A stretch of DNA of 64,000 nt from positions 1 to 64,000 of the IMG/VR virus record IMGVR_UViG_3300046492_000237. One strand, given 5' to 3'. The notes beneath the pieces are model-generated. The model ran no database searches and had not been told where the DNA came from. It was given only the letters and a program-made list of their open reading frames with translations. This DNA is from a virus. A program made the position numbers and the translations under genes. Positions 7,239 through 28,285 of the stretch are shown piece by piece. Within the stretch, counting starts at the first letter, position 1. Every line of letters begins with the position of its first letter.

Positions 7239-7261
7239 GTCGTGACGCCATCCTTTCCCGA
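7239..7261 (+). promoter_or_regulatory. Putative late promoter GTCGTGAC-gccAtccT-N6; +1 is the terminase ATG (leaderless)
   Basis: One of 12 copies of the motif; no Shine-Dalgarno upstream of ATG 7261. Confidence 0.75.
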
Positions 7262-9891
7262 TGACTAGAAAACCATCGATCAAACTCCCTACGCCACATC
7301 GCGTACAGCAGAAGATTCTCGACAAAGCCAGCCGCTTCAACGCGGTCGCCATGGGCGAACAGGGCGGGAAAACTACCCTCGGCATCGAGGTGCTTTTGCT
7401 TGGCCCGCGCGGCGCTATCAAAGGCAAAGCCCCGGTAGGATGGTTCTCTGCTACCGAATCCAAAATGCTCGAAGTCGTTGGCATGGTGGTGGCGGCGATC
7501 GCGCCGCTGATCAAGCGCCGCATCAGCAACAAGCGGATCGACCTCACCACCGGCGGCTCGATGTTCTTCTACAGCATGGACGACCTTCCCGAGGTGTATG
7601 AGCAGTTCGGTCTGGTCGTTGTCGATGATGTCTGCCGGGTAAATGGATTCCTGTCCACCTATGAGCCGGTGCTCACTCAGGCCCTCGAAGCCCACAATGG
7701 CGACGCGTGGTTCCTTTCTGGCGCCTACGGTAAGCGCAACGACTTCCACAAGCTGCTGCAGGCCGGCAAGCAGGATCCTGACTGGTCGTGCTGGCAGTTC
7801 GATTCGTTCTGCAACCCATTCCTGAGCGCCGCCACCAAAGAGGAAGCCGACAAGGTCAGTGAACCAGAGTACCTGCAGCGCTTCGGCGCCGAGTTTCTGG
7901 ATGTCGCGATCGAGCTGACCAACGCGCAGCGCGTCATCGGGCCGGATGAAACATTCCGCCAGTGGGTTGAGCGACTGGCAGCGGACGGCCTCAAGGTCGA
8001 CGGGCGCGCATTCAAGCTGTCCGACCGCCCTGCCATGGCATGGATCTACGATCAGGTCCCCAGCACCGCAGACGAGGCCTTCCGCTACGTGCTGGTGCTG
8101 ATGAAGTGCGCACAGGTGGGATTTACCGTCATGGAAATGCTGGCGGTGATCTATCTGGGGATCAAGTTCCAGCCGGCGACCGTGGGCATGTTCCTGCCCG
8201 ATATGAACTTGGCCGGCCTCAAGTCTGCCGAACGCTTCATGCCGATCGTGCGCACCATCCCGGACGTTCACAACCTGATGACCATGGATGACCCTAACGG
8301 CGGCGGCAGGAAGTCTGGCGAAGGCAACGTGCGGACGCGGCGGATCTCCGAAGCGATGTTTGTCTTCAGCTGGACTTCCGGTCGATCGACCACGGAGTCG
8401 ATCCCGATGGACATCCTGTCGTTTGACGAAGTGCAGGAAATGACCCTCGAGCAGCTGGAGAAAACGCGCGAGCGTCTGTCTGCAAGCCCGATCCGTTTTA
8501 CGCTGATGGGCAGTACCGCGAACTGGCCGGACGTTGATATTCATCACTGGTACAAAAAGGGCAGCAAGCACCGATTCCATACCGAGTGCCCGCACTGCCT
8601 TGAGGCAAAGCCTCTGGACGACTACTTTCCGGAGTGCATCAAATACGACAAGATCACCAACCGGCATCGCTACGTCTGCTTCAGCTGCCAAGGCTGGATC
8701 GACGACACCCAGCGCGGCGAGTGGGTTGCAGAAGAACCCGAACTTGATCCGCCGATCGATCATTCGATGCCAAAGCGCGACTGGCCATTGCGCATTCGCT
8801 CAATTCACTTCCCGCAGTTCCTGTCGCCGACCATCTCGGCCGGCGAGATCATCGACGCGTACAACACCGCTACGGACATGAAGAACTTTTTCAACCGTAA
8901 GCTGGGCAAGCCGTACCTTGACCCGAGTCAGGTTCCGGTCACGCTCGAGCACATGGCGAACTGCGCCAAGGTCGGTATGGCCGCCGGTATCGTCTGGAAG
9001 TCGCGTGCGAAGGGTGCCTACATGGGCATCGACCAGATGGGTAACTTCAACGTTCATGTGATCAAGGAGCGGCTGCCAGACGGGCGTCAGGCCGTGATTC
9101 ACGTTGAGGAAACCTACAGCGCGGATCCGTTCGCGCGATCAGCTGAGCTGATGGACCTTTACGGCATCGCCATCTGCGTGGTCGAGATCAACCCGAACTA
9201 CAATGACGCGAAAAAGTTCGCCAACCAGTTCCCCGGCCGGGTATTCATCTGCAACAGCTTCGGCAGCATGATGGAAGGCATGATTCAGTGGGGCGACACG
9301 CCGAAACTCGATCGTAGCGATCGGCGCACCGATGAGGACGCTCAGGATCGCTACACACTGAAAATGGACCAGTACAAGTGCATGCAGGTCAGCATGTCGC
9401 GCTTCACCACGCCAGAGCCATCCTGCATCTTCCCCGACCCGCAGGGGTTGGTACAGGAAGTCATCGACAAGGGCCAGAAACAGATGGTGGCCGTCCTCCC
9501 GCGCGTGTTCCACCACTTCACCAAGACCGCACTTGTGGCGGAAAAGGACGAGGAAACGAACCAGTACCGGCGATCGGTTAAAAAGGTCGGCATCGACCCC
9601 CACTTCAGCTACGCCAACATGCTGTGCGATGTGGCATGGTCGCGATCGCACGGCACCACCACGTTCATCCTGCCCGATATAGACAGCACCCAGCGCGGCA
9701 TGCTGGAGCCGGGCAACATTCAGGTGCCGGGCACGATCGCTGCGGCAATGCATGAACAGCAGATGGCGCTGGAGGACACCTGTGGGCGTTGCACGCACTT
9801 CAACGAGGAAACCCGCATGTGCGTGGAGAACATGGTGCTGACCCGCGCCACAAGTCCGAGCTGCTACGCCTACATCGCCAAGCAGTCGTGA
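7261..9891 (+). CDS. Terminase large subunit: lambda GpA-like ATPase, Zn-binding segment and RNase H-like nuclease, with an extra N-terminal ATPase-like domain
   Basis: KCAQVGFT (GpA-type Walker A), ILSFDEV (Walker B), CPHC/CFSC and YMGIDQ (nuclease). The N-terminus has QQKIL...MGEQGGKTT and LVVVDD. Confidence 0.85.
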   Translation: MTRKPSIKLPTPHRVQQKILDKASRFNAVAMGEQGGKTTLGIEVLLLGPRGAIKGKAPVGWFSATESKMLEVVGMVVAAIAPLIKRRISNKRIDLTTGGSMFFYSMDDLPEVYEQFGLVVVDDVCRVNGFLSTYEPVLTQALEAHNGDAWFLSGAYGKRNDFHKLLQAGKQDPDWSCWQFDSFCNPFLSAATKEEADKVSEPEYLQRFGAEFLDVAIELTNAQRVIGPDETFRQWVERLAADGLKVDGRAFKLSDRPAMAWIYDQVPSTADEAFRYVLVLMKCAQVGFTVMEMLAVIYLGIKFQPATVGMFLPDMNLAGLKSAERFMPIVRTIPDVHNLMTMDDPNGGGRKSGEGNVRTRRISEAMFVFSWTSGRSTTESIPMDILSFDEVQEMTLEQLEKTRERLSASPIRFTLMGSTANWPDVDIHHWYKKGSKHRFHTECPHCLEAKPLDDYFPECIKYDKITNRHRYVCFSCQGWIDDTQRGEWVAEEPELDPPIDHSMPKRDWPLRIRSIHFPQFLSPTISAGEIIDAYNTATDMKNFFNRKLGKPYLDPSQVPVTLEHMANCAKVGMAAGIVWKSRAKGAYMGIDQMGNFNVHVIKERLPDGRQAVIHVEETYSADPFARSAELMDLYGIAICVVEINPNYNDAKKFANQFPGRVFICNSFGSMMEGMIQWGDTPKLDRSDRRTDEDAQDRYTLKMDQYKCMQVSMSRFTTPEPSCIFPDPQGLVQEVIDKGQKQMVAVLPRVFHHFTKTALVAEKDEETNQYRRSVKKVGIDPHFSYANMLCDVAWSRSHGTTTFILPDIDSTQRGMLEPGNIQVPGTIAAAMHEQQMALEDTCGRCTHFNEETRMCVENMVLTRATSPSCYAYIAKQS

Positions 9892-13309: not shown

Positions 13310-13480
13310 GATGTGATGTCCGGTGCTGAGATCCCGGTTCATGGCGAGAATTGAACTCGCGACGCGCCTTTTGTGAGGTCGCTCTACCAACTGAGCTACA
13401 TGATCACGATCTGGTCACCCGGTCTAGAAATCCGGTTACCCGTCCCGCTTAGCGTATCAGCCTACGCATTCATCAACATC
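13310..13480 (-). ncRNA. Structured RNA module A (closing stem plus two kissing hairpins) with a nested tRNA-like element at 13336-13405
   Basis: GATGTTGATG/CATCACATC stem; GCGT-AGGCTGAT-ACGC and CCGG-GATCTCAGCA-CCGG hairpins; nested TAGCTCAGTTGGTAGAGC D-arm and GCGAG-TTCAATT-CTCGC T-arm. Confidence 0.65.
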
Positions 13481-14290: not shown

Positions 14291-14366
14291 TGGCAGGTCG
14301 TCAGGGATTCGAACCCCATCCACACGGCTTTGGAGGCCGGCATGCATGCCATCACAACCACGACCT
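14291..14366 (-). tRNA. tRNA-Trp (CCA)
   Basis: Acceptor stem AGGTCGT/ACGACCT plus G-CCA end; anticodon arm CGGC-CT-CCA-AA-GCCG; T-loop GGTTCGAATCC; 76 nt; D-arm atypical. Confidence 0.85.
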
Positions 14367-14857: not shown

Positions 14858-14880
14858 GTCGTGACGGCATGCTGTGGCCA
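14858..14880 (+). promoter_or_regulatory. Late promoter; +1 is the portal ATG (leaderless)
   Basis: GTCGTGAC-ggcAtgcT-gtggcc-ATG. Confidence 0.75.
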
Positions 14881-16520
14881 TGACCGACAATGCCATCCAA
14901 ACCGCGCACAACCCGTCTGCTCCGAAAGATGAGCAGCAGGACGCCATGCGCGAAGCACAAAAGAACGCGATCCCGAGCAGCGTCGAAGACATGATGCCGC
15001 TGATCAAATTCATGTCCCAGCAATATGAGGATCAGGAGTTCGCGAAGGCTCTGACAAAGCCCAACGTGATCCCGTATCCGAGCATGGCGGCCGCCAAGGG
15101 CGAATCCGGCATGCAGTCCGTATATCTGGACGAGCGCCGGGTTGAAATGCTTGGCGAATATTACGAGCGCCCGGGCGCCTTCGGCTTCGACATGATGCGA
15201 GCAATGGTCGACCAGACGCCGATCCTGTCAGCGGTGATCATGACCCGCGAGCGGCAGATCCGTCGGTTCTGTCGTGTGCAGGAAACCGGGAAAGGCCCCG
15301 GCTTCGCGATTCGGCACAAGGATCAGAGCATCAAGATGGGCAAGACCGAGCAGAGCACCATCACTCTGCTCGAAAGCTTTTTCACGAACTGCGGCTGGGA
15401 GTCGAAGCCGCGCCAGCGCATGCGCCTGCGCCGCGACAACTTTTCCGGGTTCATGTCGAAGCTGGTGCGGGACACGCTGACCATGGACAGCGCCGCGATC
15501 GAGACTGAGTGGAAGCGTGACAAGGCCAAAGGCCTCGATGGCATGTACGCGGTCGACGGCGCCACCATCCGCCTCTGCACCGAATCAGGCTACCGTGGCG
15601 ATGATGAGCTGTTCGCGCTGCAGGTGGTTCAGGGCAACATTCGCGCGGCTTACACCTATGACGATTTGATCTACGTCCCGCGCAACCCGCGCACCGACGT
15701 GATGGTCGGCGGTTACGGCATGTCCGAGGTCGAGCTGCTGATCAAAGTGGTCACCGGCTTCCTCAACGCCATGACCTACAACCTCAAGTTCTTCGATTCG
15801 AACACCATCCCGAAAGGGATTTTGCACATGGCCGGCGACTACAGCGCCGAGGACCTGAACAGCTTCAAGCGCTACTGGAACGCCATGACCAAGGGCGTGG
15901 CCAACGCGTGGACCATGCCGGTGATGATCGCCAAGAATGGCGAGTCGAAAGCGTCGTTTGAGAAATTCGATGTCGATGTCGACGAACTGATGTTCGGCAA
16001 GTGGATGACCTTCCTCACGTCGATCATCTGCGCGATCTACGGCATGGCTCCGGATGAAATCAACTTTGAGAGCTTCACCACGGGCACCAGCTCGCTGAGC
16101 GGTAGCGACACCGAGGAAAAGTTGATCAACTCCAAGGACAAGGGGTTGCGGCCGCTGCTGTCCTACTTCGAGGACCTGTTTTCCGATTACGTCGTGTCTG
16201 AGTTCAACGAGAACTATGTGTTCCGCTGGACCGGTCTGGACGAGATGGATTCCAAACAGGCTTGGACTGAGGAAAACGCGATCAGCACTTGGGGTGAAGC
16301 CCGCAAGGCTCGCGGTCAGGATGAGATCGCAGACGACGTGCTCAACAACGCGCCGCTCAACCCGAACCTCATGGGCATCTATATGCAGACCGTGATGGGC
16401 GGCGGTGATGATGATTCCCAGCCAGCCGGCGGTGCGCCAGCCAAGCCAAAAAAGGCACCGAAAAGCGATAGCGAGCTGCAAAAGGCCTTTGGCCTGCCGC
16501 AGTTCAGGGTGGATCCGTAA
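14880..16520 (+). CDS. Portal protein
   Basis: ~546 aa with portal motifs VDGATIR, YGMSEVE, NLKFF...IPKGIL, ICAIYGMAPDEI, GLRPLL; first gene of the head module. Confidence 0.9.
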   Translation: MTDNAIQTAHNPSAPKDEQQDAMREAQKNAIPSSVEDMMPLIKFMSQQYEDQEFAKALTKPNVIPYPSMAAAKGESGMQSVYLDERRVEMLGEYYERPGAFGFDMMRAMVDQTPILSAVIMTRERQIRRFCRVQETGKGPGFAIRHKDQSIKMGKTEQSTITLLESFFTNCGWESKPRQRMRLRRDNFSGFMSKLVRDTLTMDSAAIETEWKRDKAKGLDGMYAVDGATIRLCTESGYRGDDELFALQVVQGNIRAAYTYDDLIYVPRNPRTDVMVGGYGMSEVELLIKVVTGFLNAMTYNLKFFDSNTIPKGILHMAGDYSAEDLNSFKRYWNAMTKGVANAWTMPVMIAKNGESKASFEKFDVDVDELMFGKWMTFLTSIICAIYGMAPDEINFESFTTGTSSLSGSDTEEKLINSKDKGLRPLLSYFEDLFSDYVVSEFNENYVFRWTGLDEMDSKQAWTEENAISTWGEARKARGQDEIADDVLNNAPLNPNLMGIYMQTVMGGGDDDSQPAGGAPAKPKKAPKSDSELQKAFGLPQFRVDP

Positions 16521-16529
16521 CAGAGGATC

Positions 16530-16552
16530 GTCGTGACGCAATGATCAACGCA
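16530..16552 (+). promoter_or_regulatory. Late promoter; predicted +1 at A16552
   Basis: GTCGTGAC-gcaAtgaT-caacgc-A. Confidence 0.7.
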
Positions 16553-16800
16553 TTGAGCCCAAGCATCCCCTAAGTCTGAGGGGGCCGGGAGGGGTTAAGC
16601 TCCCGGGTACTATTCACCTTGCATCGCTCAAGGTTTTGAGTCGGCAACGACCCATGCAGACAAAGCGGAGAAGCGCAACCCCCCTGTAGACTTGGTTATC
16701 CCTCCTCGCCAAGTCTATAAGTCGCCAAGGGCGGGAGTCCGATGCTGTCGGTCGGTGGATGTCCAGACGCTCCGCTGGCGCCACCGACTGGGGCGACCCT
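16552..16800 (+). ncRNA. Candidate highly structured ncRNA or long leader between the portal and MuF genes
   Basis: At least six hairpins directly after the predicted +1; no credible ORF in the interval. Confidence 0.5.
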
Positions 16801-16822
16801 TCACTCTCCAAAGGATGCGCTT

Positions 16823-17965
16823 GTGGCTTTTCTCCTCGACCTCACACCTATCAGCCGGCAGACAACCAACGCCGCGCTCGAATTCATTTACAAGGCAGTC
16901 CACGATGGTGAAGACGGCATCTGGAGTCCGCATGAGTCCGTGCTGATCCGCAGACTTGTCGAGCTGTTCTCCGAACGCGGCCTCGATCGTCTTGAACACG
17001 TCAAGCAGCAGATCATCGCATGGGAAAATGGCGACCACTTCAAACCCGGCGCGCCTCAGCCTGTTGCCGTCCCGGGCATGATGGGGCGCTGGTCTGACGC
17101 CGAGCTGAAACTGGTCCGCGTCTACCTCGAATCGCTCCCGCCGAGCAGCTGGTCGCTGGATGACCACATGATGGCCGTCGATTACGTGGTTCAGCGCTAC
17201 CTTCCTGCCGATGAGTTGCGCACCGAAGCGGAGTGGATGGCCACCCGCGCAAACCTCATGGGCAAGGTGCAAGCCAATCTCGATCAGCCGGCCACGGTCA
17301 CGCAGGCGGACAAGGTTCTGGCCGCGCTGCCATCGACCATGGCTGCCGCAGTTCAACAGTTCAACATCAATCAGCAGCAGCTGAAAACCATGGCGTTCGG
17401 TAATGCCCGGGCCGCCGAGAACGTGCGCGCGCTGGCCGACGATGTCAGGCACCGGATGCGCAACGCGGTGATGCAGCACCTTGAGGAGGAGTTTACCGGC
17501 GGCACCAGCGAATCGCTGCAGACCAAACTGTTCGACCAGTTCGCCACGTTGAACCGTGACTGGCGCCGGATTGCCGTCACTGAGGCGGGCGAGACCATGA
17601 ATCAGGGTTTCATCGCCAACCTTGCTCCCGGCACAAAGGTTCAGCGCATCGAGCAGTACGCCAGTGCGTGCGCGTTCTGCCGCAAGATCCACAAGCGTAT
17701 TGCCACAGTGGTATCCCCGGACAAGCCAGACAAGGATGGCGAAACAGAGATCTGGGTCGGCAAAAACAACATTGGCCGATCGGCATCCCCGCGCAAGCGT
17801 GTGGGTGACACGTTGGTCAATCGCACGCCAGATGAAATGTACTGGTTACCCGCCGGGCTTGCGCATCCGCACTGTCGCGGGCGCTGGGTGCTGGTGATTC
17901 AGGACCTGCCCGGTGATGATCCGGAGTTCGGCGACTGGTTGCGTAAGACGCTCGGCGGCGAATAG
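16823..17965 (+). CDS. Head morphogenesis protein (MuF / SPP1 gp7-like)
   Basis: RDWRRIAVTE, CAFC and HPHCRGRW; GTG start after AAGGA. Confidence 0.8.
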   Translation: MAFLLDLTPISRQTTNAALEFIYKAVHDGEDGIWSPHESVLIRRLVELFSERGLDRLEHVKQQIIAWENGDHFKPGAPQPVAVPGMMGRWSDAELKLVRVYLESLPPSSWSLDDHMMAVDYVVQRYLPADELRTEAEWMATRANLMGKVQANLDQPATVTQADKVLAALPSTMAAAVQQFNINQQQLKTMAFGNARAAENVRALADDVRHRMRNAVMQHLEEEFTGGTSESLQTKLFDQFATLNRDWRRIAVTEAGETMNQGFIANLAPGTKVQRIEQYASACAFCRKIHKRIATVVSPDKPDKDGETEIWVGKNNIGRSASPRKRVGDTLVNRTPDEMYWLPAGLAHPHCRGRWVLVIQDLPGDDPEFGDWLRKTLGGE

Positions 17966-18306: not shown

Positions 18307-18329
18307 GTCGTGACGACACCATTGAGGCA
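18307..18329 (+). promoter_or_regulatory. Late promoter; +1 is the protease ATG
   Basis: GTCGTGAC-gacAccaT-tgaggc-ATG. Confidence 0.75.
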
Positions 18330-19222
18330 TGACAGAAGCCCAGCATCAAAGTGCCAATCCAGAATATCTAAGCATCGGAACGATGCTGAAGGCTCGCCCC
18401 TCCGAGGAGAAAGGCGAGCGCTTCATCTATCTGGAAGCCAGCCGCGAAGGCGCCGACCAGCAGAACGATATCGTCCTCGCGAAAGCGCTGGAGGATTCTG
18501 CGCCCCATTTCCTCAAGTTCGGAAACATCGATATCGACCACAAGTCGATGCCGTCGATCGCTGCCCAGTACGGCATCACCGAGCCTGAAGCGTGGGAGGT
18601 CGGCGTTCCCGAGGAGGTTCGCGTTGACGGCCCTTCGGTATTCGTCAAGGCTCGCCTGTTCAAGGGTGATACACCGCTCGCGGCCAAGGCCAACATGGTC
18701 TGGGAAAGCATGACTCAGCTGAGTCCAGCCGCTCGCTGGTATGCATCCGTGGGTGGCGCAACTTTGGCTCGCCGCGATGGCGTTGATCACCTGACCAAAT
18801 CAAAAGTCAGCTATGTGACCAAGGTTCGCTGGAGCAACTTGGCTATCAGCCGCCAGCCAGTCAACCAGCACGTTTCTGCTGCCAGCACCATTCCCTTTGG
18901 GATCCTCGCCAAGTGCTGGACGCCGGCTGGCTTCGACATGGCGAAAGCTTTGGAAGCCAGCTACGCCACCGACGTCTCCCAGCTTTCGGGTGGCGGCGCA
19001 CTCGGCATGCAGTCGATCGATGCCGGACCTTCCTATTTTCAGTTCCGCGATCAGCTTTCTGAGTCGCTACTGGAAGGTCGTGACCACATCATTCAATCCG
19101 CACAAGGCTTGGCAGATTACGCCATGCACAAATTCGGTCTGTCTCGCGTTGAGGCAGTTGAATGGGTAACCCGTTTCATGCGCGACATCAAAAACTCACT
19201 GACAAAACGAGGCTCGGAATGA
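18329..19222 (+). CDS. Prohead protease
   Basis: IYLEAS-x3-DQQND, GNIDIDH, WYASVGG and LAISRQPVNQ (HK97/herpes-type protease layout); lies between MuF and the capsid gene. Confidence 0.8.
   Translation: MTEAQHQSANPEYLSIGTMLKARPSEEKGERFIYLEASREGADQQNDIVLAKALEDSAPHFLKFGNIDIDHKSMPSIAAQYGITEPEAWEVGVPEEVRVDGPSVFVKARLFKGDTPLAAKANMVWESMTQLSPAARWYASVGGATLARRDGVDHLTKSKVSYVTKVRWSNLAISRQPVNQHVSAASTIPFGILAKCWTPAGFDMAKALEASYATDVSQLSGGGALGMQSIDAGPSYFQFRDQLSESLLEGRDHIIQSAQGLADYAMHKFGLSRVEAVEWVTRFMRDIKNSLTKRGSE
19077..19099 (+). promoter_or_regulatory. Internal late promoter within the protease gene, positioned to drive scaffold and capsid
   Basis: GTCGTGAC-cacAtcaT is a full motif match. Confidence 0.6.
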
Positions 19223-19919: not shown

Positions 19920-21422
19920 ATGGACATCAACCAACTCGCTGCACAATTCGGCGCTGCCGCTCCCGGCGGGGCTCCCATTCTGGGCGGTTCTCAGGGCGGC
20001 GCACCGGCGCAGGACCTGATCAAGGCTCTGGAAGCCAGTAATTACCAGACCGACGTTTCCACCCTCACCGGTGGTGGTGCTCTGGGCGTTCAATCGCTGG
20101 ATACGGCGATGAAGACCACCGTGCAGGAGAACGAACACTTCACCCTGTTCAACCGCCTGCAATCCACCAGCGCGACCAACATCGTTGACGAATACGTTCG
20201 TCAGAACAGTGTCGGTGGCTTCCTCGGTGGCTCGACCAACTCCCAAATGGGCGTGGTTCGCTCGGCTCAGGGCGAGTACACCCGCGAAGTCGGTCTGGTC
20301 AAGTTCCTGATGACCCTGCGTCAAGTCGGCTACGTGCTGAACATCGGTAAGAACATCACCGATGCCACCGCAGTCGAAGAACGCAACGGCGCCATGCAGC
20401 TGCTGACCGACGCCGAGTACCTGCTGTTCCACGGCAACGCCGATGCGTGCCCGACCCAGTTTGACGGTATCTTTGCCCAGCTGGACAAAGAAATTGCCGC
20501 CGGCCAGATGTCTGGCGACAACGTGATCGACCTGCAGGGCAAGAAGCTCGACAGCGTCGAAGCGTTCTCCAAGATCAACGTTGCGGTCAGCCGTTACGGT
20601 TCGTGGGGTCGCAGCACCGACGTTTACATGCCGAACAGCGTGCAAAACGACCTGAACACCGGTTTGGACCCAGCGTATCGCTGGACCCCGGGCGGCGGTA
20701 ACACTCCGGTTCTTGGTGGCCACGTTGAAGGCATCCGCCTGACCAACGGCGTACTGAAGACCAACATGGACACCTTCATCCACGATGAAGAAAACCCGAT
20801 GGTCTACCCGTTCGAGGTGTACAACGCCGCGATCGCTACCGCCAACGCTGCGTTCAAGCCAGCCGGCGTGACCGTCGATGCCTCGGCTAACGCCACCGAC
20901 TCGCAGTTCACTTCGGCCCGCGCCGGTAACTACTACTGGGCTGTTGCCGCTGTTGGCGGCCAAGGTCAGGGCCTGACGGCGGTTGTACTGACCGGGCAGA
21001 CCGCTGTGGCTGCTGGTAAAAGCGCTGTGCTGACCATCACCAAGTCGGCAGCCGGCACCGAAACTGGTTACGCGATTTATCGCAGCCGCCAGAACGGCAC
21101 CAACGCTGTAAACGATCTGCGTCTGGTCAAGACCATCAAGAAGACTGGTGACACCACCACCTTCACCGACGTCAACCGCGATATCCCGGGCACGGTCTCG
21201 GTCCCGCTGTTGAACATGGGTCCAAGCGCGGACGCTATCGGCTGGCGTCAATTCCAGCCGATGACCAAGATCCCGCTGCCGTTCGGTATCGGTGGCATGC
21301 CTGTCATCAGCTGGTTCCAGTTCCTGTTCGGTTACCTGCGTATGACCAAGCCGAAGCATCACGGCTACATCAAGAACATCCTGCCGAGCAACGCCAAATG
21401 GCGTCCGCACGTAGGCGAGTAA
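19920..21422 (+). CDS. Major capsid protein
   Basis: 500 aa, strongly biased codon usage, GGGALGVQSLD N-arm, EYLLFHGNAD...QFDGI. Confidence 0.9.
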   Translation: MDINQLAAQFGAAAPGGAPILGGSQGGAPAQDLIKALEASNYQTDVSTLTGGGALGVQSLDTAMKTTVQENEHFTLFNRLQSTSATNIVDEYVRQNSVGGFLGGSTNSQMGVVRSAQGEYTREVGLVKFLMTLRQVGYVLNIGKNITDATAVEERNGAMQLLTDAEYLLFHGNADACPTQFDGIFAQLDKEIAAGQMSGDNVIDLQGKKLDSVEAFSKINVAVSRYGSWGRSTDVYMPNSVQNDLNTGLDPAYRWTPGGGNTPVLGGHVEGIRLTNGVLKTNMDTFIHDEENPMVYPFEVYNAAIATANAAFKPAGVTVDASANATDSQFTSARAGNYYWAVAAVGGQGQGLTAVVLTGQTAVAAGKSAVLTITKSAAGTETGYAIYRSRQNGTNAVNDLRLVKTIKKTGDTTTFTDVNRDIPGTVSVPLLNMGPSADAIGWRQFQPMTKIPLPFGIGGMPVISWFQFLFGYLRMTKPKHHGYIKNILPSNAKWRPHVGE

Positions 21423-24827: not shown

Positions 24828-24888
24828 GAGCCCAGCGTCGCGTCACGATGGCGCCCCGGCAAATCGTCGTGACGCCATCATAATCCCA
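24827..24888. promoter_or_regulatory. Back-to-back divergent late promoters, both leaderless
   Basis: Minus: ATCGTGAC (24849-24842), 14 nt, ATG 24827. Plus: GTCGTGAC (24866-24873), 14 nt, ATG 24888. Confidence 0.8.
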
Positions 24889-28262: not shown

Positions 28263-28285
28263 GTCGTGACCCGACAATGACTTGA
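28263..28285 (+). promoter_or_regulatory. Late promoter; predicted +1 at A28285
   Basis: GTCGTGAC-ccgAcaaT-gacttg-A, immediately after the terminator. Confidence 0.7.

Follow-up and report, generated by a model that had tools for sequence, protein, structure and literature searches.

The virus record IMGVR_UViG_3300046492_000237 is complete (92,689 bp with direct terminal repeats), and its first 64 kb, the 64,000 nucleotides that we refer to as the window, include a region in which the portal gene, ending at 16520, is followed by a 302-nt gap, a 380-aa gene, a head maturation protease and a major head protein. The subject of this report is an RNA of ~245 nt encoded in that gap. By DNA, the closest cultured relative is the Pseudomonas syringae phage Touem01, with 73% identity across the portal gene. 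A first-pass annotation made from the letters alone had described here a densely structured, late-promoter-driven non-coding RNA that leads the downstream gene, and covariation among relatives together with promoter spacing bears this out for this phage. The locus is made up of the following features.

14880-16520, + strand: portal gene (Pfam PF04860, 9e-20; phrog_12, 7e-41), its ATG exactly 21 nt after the T of the TCGTGAC at 14859.
16531-16545, + strand: late-promoter motif TCGTGAC with a -10-like AATGAT; predicted transcription start (+1) at A16552.
16552-16798, + strand: structured non-coding RNA of ~245 nt, core plus 3' domain; 244.5 bits over 16547-16798 with the full-length covariance model R1, built at the stage of the 8-sequence alignment, and 117 bits over 16552-16678 with R2, the 128-position core model.
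16799-16822, + strand: linker with the Shine-Dalgarno (SD) sequence AAGGA (16811-16815).
16823-17965, + strand: minor-head-protein gene, 380 aa, GTG start, MuF-like by position and neighbours.
18329-19222: head maturation protease (phrog_1028).
19920-21422: major head protein (phrog_752).

Comparison with related loci makes it nearly certain that positions 16552-16798 (+) encode a conserved, selected and structured RNA, which on the same evidence is neither a set of chance hairpins nor coding. The element is present as a single copy in the 92,689-bp genome, and the DNA of the gap is itself conserved in close relatives. The minimum free energy (MFE) of 16552-16822 is -109.9 kcal/mol, with z = -2.27 on the + strand versus -0.88 on the - strand; predicted folding energy alone would lend modest support. 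Members of the family were sought with R1 among portal loci and by contig scans seeded with a single conserved pattern, the loop of the hairpin that we call P3. Among portal loci, R1 recognized 14 full and 3 partial members (L-numbers below are labels of individual viral, metagenome or genome loci; L001 is Touem01, PP179325). The pattern scan of viral contigs added L100 and L087 and a distinct group, L082, L083 and L094. For the metagenome and bacterial scans member totals are lower bounds: among the matches listed, metagenome contigs gave at least three real members (L161, L190 and L179) in 120 loci, and bacterial genome contigs gave chance matches only. The sole bacterial-genome contig with a covariance-model match, L238 (30 bits), was rejected, as the match falls within an open reading frame (ORF). 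Altogether the covariance models match at least 27 distinct phage sequences, six of which are cultured phages: Touem01, Dolphis, Jeremy, Aeromonas ST4, Yersinia fHe-Yen8-01 and E. coli ECML-606-1. The RNA was not found in Bordetella PHB04 or Morganella Mecenats66.

Conservation of structure in relatives, which had been proposed as a check, was found among up to 27 sequences. In the 8-sequence alignment, RNAalifold gave changes on both sides in 19 of 48 pairs, as where CCCCT/AGGGG becomes CCGCG/CGCGG or CCTTG/CAAGG. Pairs were then counted in three larger alignments. When 24 sequences were fitted to the covariance model over the full length, 93.8% of cells were paired versus 71.6% in column shuffles, with compensatory changes in 42 of 48 pairs. 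A structure-blind MAFFT alignment of the 5' core of 24 sequences gave 89.3% versus 69.7% (28 of 30 pairs compensatory, the pseudoknot described below included), and the 5' core of 27 sequences fitted to R2 gave 92.3% versus 68.2% (24 of 25). No shuffle reached the observed pairing value in any of the three. In the MAFFT alignment, shifting the 3' partner strands by 1-3 columns lowered pairing to 31-45%. Since G-U pairs are tolerated on the + strand only, the orientation of the RNA is fixed as +. Within the RNA, the lengths of insertions and deletions do not keep to multiples of three, and substitutions occur as compensatory pairs.

A shared P3-like hairpin with the loop GGGTTAAA was also seen at L085 5019-5110, L088 501-592 (-) and L098 6210-6301 (-), where R2 scores 22 bits (E ~0.02); this sequence may be a distant relative of the RNA or a chance match.

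The elements of the fold, all on the + strand, are as follows.

16557-16560 (GCCC) with 16791-16794 (GGGC), +: P1, a tentative closing helix, 95.8% paired in the model-fitted alignment of 24 sequences.
16567-16583, +: P2 hairpin CCCCT/AGGGG (16567-16571 with 16579-16583), 5 of 5 pairs changed on both sides.
16574-16578 with 16657-16661, +: pseudoknot between the P2 loop GTCTG and CAGAC, 5 of 5 pairs compensatory, 91.7% paired in the MAFFT alignment.
16585-16606, +: P3 hairpin (16585-16591 with 16600-16606), 99.5% of cells paired and 6 of 7 pairs compensatory in 27 sequences.
16592-16599, +: P3 loop GGGTTAAG, consensus GGGYTAAR, near-invariant in most members.
16616-16634, +: P4 hairpin ACCTTG/CAAGGT (16616-16621 with 16629-16634), 6 of 6 compensatory.
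16637-16654, +: P5 hairpin with the GNRA tetraloop GCAA (16644-16647), 7 of 7 compensatory.
16670-16678, +: conserved junction GAAGCGCAA, consensus ...CGCAG, at least 85% conserved in 27 sequences.
16679-16685 with 16728-16735, +: P6 helix, 6 of 6 compensatory in the model-fitted alignment of 24 sequences.
16687-16717, +: P6a, a variable hairpin TAGACTTGG/CCAAGTCTA enclosed by P6, missing in L006 and Touem01.
16719-16724, +: conserved motif AAGTCG here, (T)AGTCG in the family, enclosed by P6.
16747-16790, +: P7, a GC-rich 3' hairpin domain (GTCGGTCGGTGG / CCACCGACTG plus an inner hairpin), which covaries in the model-fitted alignment of 24 sequences.

All of the hairpins that the first-pass annotation listed are present where it had put them, and four of them, CCCCT/AGGGG, CCGGGAG/CTCCCGG, ACCTTG/CAAGGT and the GCAA-capped hairpin, covary across 24-27 sequences and are real. 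Its hairpin at 16687-16717 exists in this phage but is a variable insertion in the family. As for its long 3' domain at 16721-16797, the inner part corresponds to the covarying P7, but the outer GTCGCC/GGCGAC helix was discarded, as its pairing is not kept in relatives; P6 and the tentative P1 stand in its place. A GAGTCC junction lies between P6 and P7, and P7 varies in length among relatives, forming a terminator-like stem in several. The pseudoknot, which was absent from the earlier description, is well supported by comparative data: when P2 loops were reassigned to the junctions of other sequences, the observed score was reached in 0 of 5000 permutations, and the interaction recurs as GCCTG/CAGGC, TCCTG/CAGGA, GACTA/TAGTC, GCTGT/ACAGC and CCCTA/TAGGG. 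The distinct group L082, L083 and L094 comes from Mu-like myoviruses; its version of the pseudoknot is GTCTGG/CCAGAC, and its RNA is shorter, at ~170 nt, without P5 and P7. The 5' AAGCCC strand that forms one side of P1 is complementary also to the P3 loop, and covariation in ECML-606-1 (AACCU with AGGUU) and L061 (GGCCC with GGGUC) gives some support to this possible alternative pairing. L011 (4774-4885, identical in L012 and L050) has a GCAA tetraloop in place of the P3 loop and no 5' AAGCCC motif, which suggests that loop and strand interact.

The RNA is preceded by a clean late-promoter motif. Copies of TCGTGAC occur in the window at 7240, 14859, 18308, 24867 and 33865 (+) and 24848 (-), those at 24848 (-) and 24867 (+) standing back to back, and also at 28264, 39068 and 19078. 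The arrangement TCGTGAC-N14-ATG, with an exact spacing of 21 nt, is found at the genes starting at 7261 (terminase), 14880 (portal), 18329 (protease), 24888, 33886 and 24827 (-), and the extended motif has 5 occurrences versus 0.7 expected. As a -10-like CATNAT lies at the right distance in these copies, transcription is predicted to start at the A of the ATG. No Shine-Dalgarno sequence is present at these genes, and we infer that many structural genes (terminase, portal, protease and tail genes) would be expressed as leaderless mRNAs. The motif is kept before the portal and protease genes of Dolphis, ST4, Touem01, L010, L061, L066, fHe-Yen8-01 and ECML-606-1. The exact spacing at six genes upholds the earlier placement of the +1 at 16552, which is 5 nt before P1. 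Other copies of the promoter give predicted leaders of 0 to ~35 nt versus 271 nt for the copy at 16531, so that the leader is indeed the outlier it had been taken for. Ahead of GTG 16823 a motif scan of the window found no second promoter motif, and the stretch from the RNA to that codon is free of terminator-like sites on the + strand. Because the +1 is at the start of the RNA and no terminator precedes the GTG gene, the RNA would form the 5' leader of the minor-head-protein mRNA in this phage.

The longest ORF at the locus, 16742-17965, opens at ATG 16742, within the RNA. In a tblastn search of 80 portal-containing viral contigs, around 45 homologues start at residue 27-30 of this longer ORF, which corresponds to GTG 16823, many of them with an in-frame stop immediately upstream, and the earlier assignment of a ribosome-binding site followed by the gene start is thus confirmed, with AAGGA at 16811-16815. 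The region 16547-16798 has stops in all six frames, and no frame is open across homologues. From the homologue starts and the stops in all frames, we take the gap to be non-coding and the predicted leader to be 271 nt long. An N-terminal extension from ATG 16742 is ruled out by the homologue start sites, and small ORFs on either strand are ruled out by stop codons. In Touem01 a hypothetical coding sequence, Touem01_00051, at 8377-8622 (-), overlies the homologous RNA and is probably a mis-call.

The downstream protein had been called MuF. It has no Pfam match even at E ≤ 10, PF04233 included, and no PHROG or PDB sequence match. Versions in relatives are annotated 'minor head protein' or 'particle associated protein', and 27% of the members of its neighbour cluster in the ESM-Atlas (score 0.94) carry PF04233. 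The name is plausible on the basis of position, relatives' annotations and this cluster. The start codons of the gene are weak, GTG in this phage and its close relatives and apparently ATT/ATC in fHe-Yen8-01 and ECML-606-1; these fit low dosage, yet need no such RNA. In fHe-Yen8-01 (L348, ~2567) and ECML-606-1 (L347, ~2992), homology and an AGGAG/AAGGAG box point to an ATT or ATC start upstream of the annotated ATGs (2618 and 3028), which suggests a rare start codon.

The 3' flanks vary among members. At least eight members (Touem01, L010, L061, L008, L016, L048, L190 and L004) have a terminator-like hairpin and U-run at the 3' end of the RNA, in three the flank overlaps the SD, and the rest have neither. 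A consensus terminator scanner confirms the sites in Touem01, a 13-bp GC stem ending in GGGC followed by A and TTTTT, and in L010, a 14-bp stem followed by TTTCTTTT. In Touem01, L010, L061, L008 and Jeremy the base of the stem is formed by the conserved 3' GGGGC with the GCCCC or GUCC of the pre-P7 junction. This GGGGC is also what the 5' AAGCCC is proposed to pair with in P1, so that a single G-rich strand would be contested by two pyrimidine strands of nearly the same sequence. L061 shows a joint change, to GGCCC/GGGCC, in all three of these: 5' strand, hairpin base and 3' strand. Touem01, L061 and L008 lack a promoter motif between the terminator-like hairpin and the SD of the gene, so that the gene there would be transcribed by read-through only. 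In L190, L082 and L094, the latter two Mu-like, the GGGC strand reaches into, or directly adjoins, the SD or ATG. The RNA has a promoter motif and a terminator-like hairpin of its own in L010, Touem01 and L061 and a promoter motif only in the window; it has no promoter motif of its own in Dolphis, ST4, L066, fHe-Yen8-01 and ECML-606-1.

We tentatively favour, as a possibility short of an even chance, that the RNA acts in cis, as a riboswitch-like leader or attenuator whose core resembles an aptamer. A cis-acting role is ranked first because the 3' ends look like the expression platform of an attenuator or riboswitch, and a conserved core with a variable 3' flank is the usual pattern of an aptamer with its platform. 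The conserved core (P2-P6 and the pseudoknot) would be an aptamer-like module, and the factor bound by it a small ligand or a protein of phage or host. The 3' GGGGC (16790-16794) would pair with the 5' AAGCCC, closing the core, or alternatively with the pre-P7 junction (GUCC or GCCCC), extending the 3' hairpin; where a U-run follows, the latter pairing would complete an intrinsic terminator. As in an attenuator or riboswitch, the number of transcripts that extend into the downstream head genes would thereby depend on how the core is folded. Because the U-run is absent from the window's own lineage, control there is shifted in the model to the translation or stability of the leader-bearing mRNA, and this is its weakest part.

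For such control of translation, the predicted folds offer several pairings near the start codon. The MFE structure of the window pairs GCATCC (16563-16568) with GGATGC (16813-16818), across the SD; a similar complementarity of 5-6 bp is present in L003, L009, Touem01 and L007, and the 5' flank is predicted to pair with the initiation region in fHe-Yen8-01 and ECML-606-1. Sequestration of the SD nevertheless found no support as a mechanism, since the ensemble accessibility of the ribosome-binding region is the same as in shuffled leaders.

Several results weigh against the cis-acting reading. Unpaired probabilities over -16 to +3, computed for 15 native leaders with 40 dinucleotide shuffles each, gave a mean z of +0.13 in pseudoknot-free folds, and complementarity between the SD and the strand formed by the junction J1/2 and P2 was marginal (65 versus 59.3 ± 3.1; 194 of 5000 permutations, p ~0.04). 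In about half of the members the 3' hairpin is not followed by a U-run. P1 is poorly tested because its columns are nearly invariant, and the AAGCCC strand is missing in the two enterobacterial members. Nothing in the analysis indicates a ligand or a binding protein.

The order late promoter, RNA, SD and gene is that of the window, L003, L004, L006, L009, Touem01 and L061, and portal or another gene, RNA, SD and gene follow one another with no promoter motif in L066, ST4, L007, L190, fHe-Yen8-01 and ECML-606-1. Other arrangements add to the case against a cis-acting leader. In L100, L161, L087, L016 and L011, 0.4-2.2 kb of other DNA separates the RNA from the gene. L010 alone has a promoter, the RNA, a 14-bp terminator and then a further promoter-like motif before the SD and gene. 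In Dolphis and Jeremy the portal stop is followed by the RNA, a strong hairpin, TCGTGAG-N14-ATG and the gene, which would be leaderless and uncoupled from the RNA because that promoter lies between them; the fold of the RNA is kept there with compensatory differences. This uncoupling is the strongest evidence against the leader reading, as the fold appears from these differences to be still under selection. The Mu-like group has the gene order transposase, terminase, portal, head-morphogenesis protein, HNH endonuclease, protease and major head; its portal and head-morphogenesis genes overlap with no RNA between them, and the RNA lies instead between a head-completion gene and the tail-terminator and sheath genes.

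Where genes have come in between the portal and the minor-head-protein gene, four lineages (L006, Touem01, L010 and L061) keep the RNA beside the latter gene and five keep it nearer the portal. Since insertions occur on either side and the Mu-like group offers another context, we rejected a strict tie of the RNA to either of these two genes. Association with a homing endonuclease or mobile intron was rejected as well, as the inserted ORFs beside the RNA (L100 and Touem01) have no endonuclease matches. The RNA is always sense to the flanking late structural genes, and to judge from its contexts it is an autonomous domain, late, sense and inside structural operons. The earlier suggestion of a cis-regulatory leader that limits dosage leads, weakly: the terminator-like 3' ends and weak start codons stand for it, but the accessibility null and the uncoupling in Dolphis and Jeremy stand against it.

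Another possibility, which we regard as doubtful though serious, is a self-contained late RNA that acts in trans as a protein-binding RNA, decoy or assembly cofactor, its position before the minor-head-protein gene being synteny only. Such an RNA could be made from its own promoter or cut from the 3' end of the portal transcript. At least eight phages (the window, L003, L004, L006, L009, Touem01, L010 and L061) have a dedicated promoter with its start 3-10 nt before the first helix, and L010 has the full layout of promoter, RNA, terminator and promoter-like motif. The fold that is maintained in Dolphis and Jeremy despite uncoupling from the gene, the insertions on both sides of the RNA, and a second, unrelated phage group with another gene context would all follow, as would a ribosome-binding region that is as free as under a random leader, which is the behaviour of an autonomous domain. 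However, no terminator marks the 3' end in the window lineage, L066, ST4, L007, fHe-Yen8-01 or ECML-606-1, the RNA is never on the opposite strand and never outside late operons, and the base of the terminator stem is shared with the closing strand, which is unusual for the terminator of a plain small RNA. Nor is there a partner protein common to both phage groups.

Processive antitermination, in which the nascent RNA would modify its own polymerase and so permit read-through of adjacent and later terminators of the late operon, is quite improbable. It would be independent of the identity of the next gene and so fits all three contexts, it needs the sense orientation within an operon that is always satisfied, and at least eight members have terminator-like hairpins immediately after the RNA. 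The layout of promoter, ~200-nt RNA, terminator and structural genes would resemble lambda PR'-tR' and HK022 PL-putL. However, the many late promoters across the structural region of the window leave no obvious need for antitermination, about half of the members have no terminator after the RNA, and the RNA resembles no Rfam family and is far larger than put. We give an equally small chance to a self-cleaving ribozyme or processing module that would separate the cistrons of the late polycistronic transcript by cleavage. Phage operons often contain small self-cleaving ribozymes, and an intercistronic, sense RNA with a complex pseudoknotted fold and highly conserved junction nucleotides would suit this role. 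It matches no known ribozyme class in Rfam, though, and is larger than most self-cleavers; in at least eight phages it would sit at the extreme 5' end of the primary transcript, where cleavage is of little use.

A packaging role like that of phi29 pRNA, which the first-pass annotation had raised by analogy, would be a special case of action in trans and is very unlikely. Like pRNA (RF00044), this is a phage-encoded structured RNA in the range of 120-250 nt, and in the window it adjoins the portal gene. There is no RF00044 match, and the carriers are ~90-kb myovirus-like or Mu-like phages; the genome studied here, at 92,689 bp with direct terminal repeats and Touem01/Dolphis-like relatives, is not of the phi29 type, which is marked by its protein-primed polymerase and gp16 ATPase. 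The RNA is late rather than early, and its Mu-like copy lies at the head-tail junction, away from the portal; nothing speaks in favour of the analogy. Last, that there is no RNA element, the gap being coding sequence (an N-terminal extension or small ORF) or chance hairpins in GC-rich DNA, is scarcely credible: the open frame 16742-17965, the minus-strand annotation in Touem01 and the modest folding z-score would speak for it, and covariation and the homologue start-site data refute it.

A comparison with Rfam, also proposed as a check, assigned the RNA to no known family. With Rfam 15 at the gathering threshold the whole window gave two tRNA matches elsewhere and none at the RNA; at E ≤ 10 the region 16300-17000 gave only two chance snoRNA matches of 13-14 bits, and at E ≤ 1 nine diverse homologous loci gave nothing at the RNA. 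The papers on this phage group that were searched describe neither the RNA nor the TCGTGAC promoter. To our knowledge, no riboswitch or comparable RNA regulator is known in phage structural-gene operons. Pseudoknotted RNAs of 170-250 nt with such covariation are rare, and earlier ones have mostly proved to be riboswitches, ribozymes or ribonucleoprotein scaffolds.

Among known systems, riboswitch and attenuator leaders such as the adenine pbuE ON switch share the conserved multi-helix pseudoknotted core, the closing-helix 3' strand that in several members is shared with a terminator-like stem, 3' flanks that vary here between U-run, SD overlap and neither, and a sense position upstream of a gene. 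Unlike them, this RNA precedes genes for virion proteins rather than metabolic or transport genes, has a terminator in about half of its members only, is separated from its gene by a promoter in two phages, suggests no ligand and is not in Rfam. The Bacillus EAR element is intercistronic and pseudoknotted, and like it and HK022 put our RNA is a structured, sense RNA within or starting a long operon, with terminators after it; in contrast, there is no sequence or structure match to either, and put is much smaller. The orphan structured RNA Proteo-phage-1 (RF03044) occurs in the same phage group, upstream of the portal in L010 and L061, but it differs in locus and strand, is 82 nt long and has an unrelated structure. 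A survey based on IMG/VR reported 10,006 unnamed viral RNA candidates, some upstream of GP20 portal genes (Fremin, Bhatt and Kyrpides 2023; PMC10690425). As here, these are covarying motifs consistently upstream of phage structural genes and from the same source. The text of that paper mentions no candidate in this gene context, and the RNA may be among the 10,006.

It is an unlikely prospect, though one worth stating, that the RNA belongs to a new functional class, a large ribozyme of a new type or a riboswitch whose signal times or doses late head assembly, and that it is a mobile module shared by the late operons of two or more unrelated phage lineages. Whatever its mode of action, the RNA sits in phage structural-gene operons, has moved between unrelated phage lineages, and is accompanied across the phage group by a clean late-promoter motif and predicted leaderless mRNAs. 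Its cultured carriers infect Pseudomonas putida, P. syringae, Aeromonas, Yersinia and E. coli and are thus amenable to standard phage genetics. Existing annotation can also be corrected, both where Touem01 has an opposite-strand hypothetical protein and where other records leave a gap of 220-270 nt.

The junction of the portal and minor-head-protein genes is a hotspot for accessory genes. In PHB04 (L345, 519-3479) four genes replace the RNA, including an annotated (p)ppGpp synthetase/hydrolase and a Ser/Thr phosphatase, and in Touem01 a GDSL-like lipase is inserted at the junction. The Proteo-phage-1 matches upstream of the portal lie at L010 2659-2741 (-) and L061 1862-1944 (-), with 59.9 and 40.4 bits; RF03044 was not detected in the window at the gathering threshold. 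Upstream of the window's own portal gene, low-scoring tRNA matches are present on the minus strand at 13336-13405 (39 bits) and 14294-14366 (32 bits), in a mostly ORF-poor stretch between 13200 and the portal.

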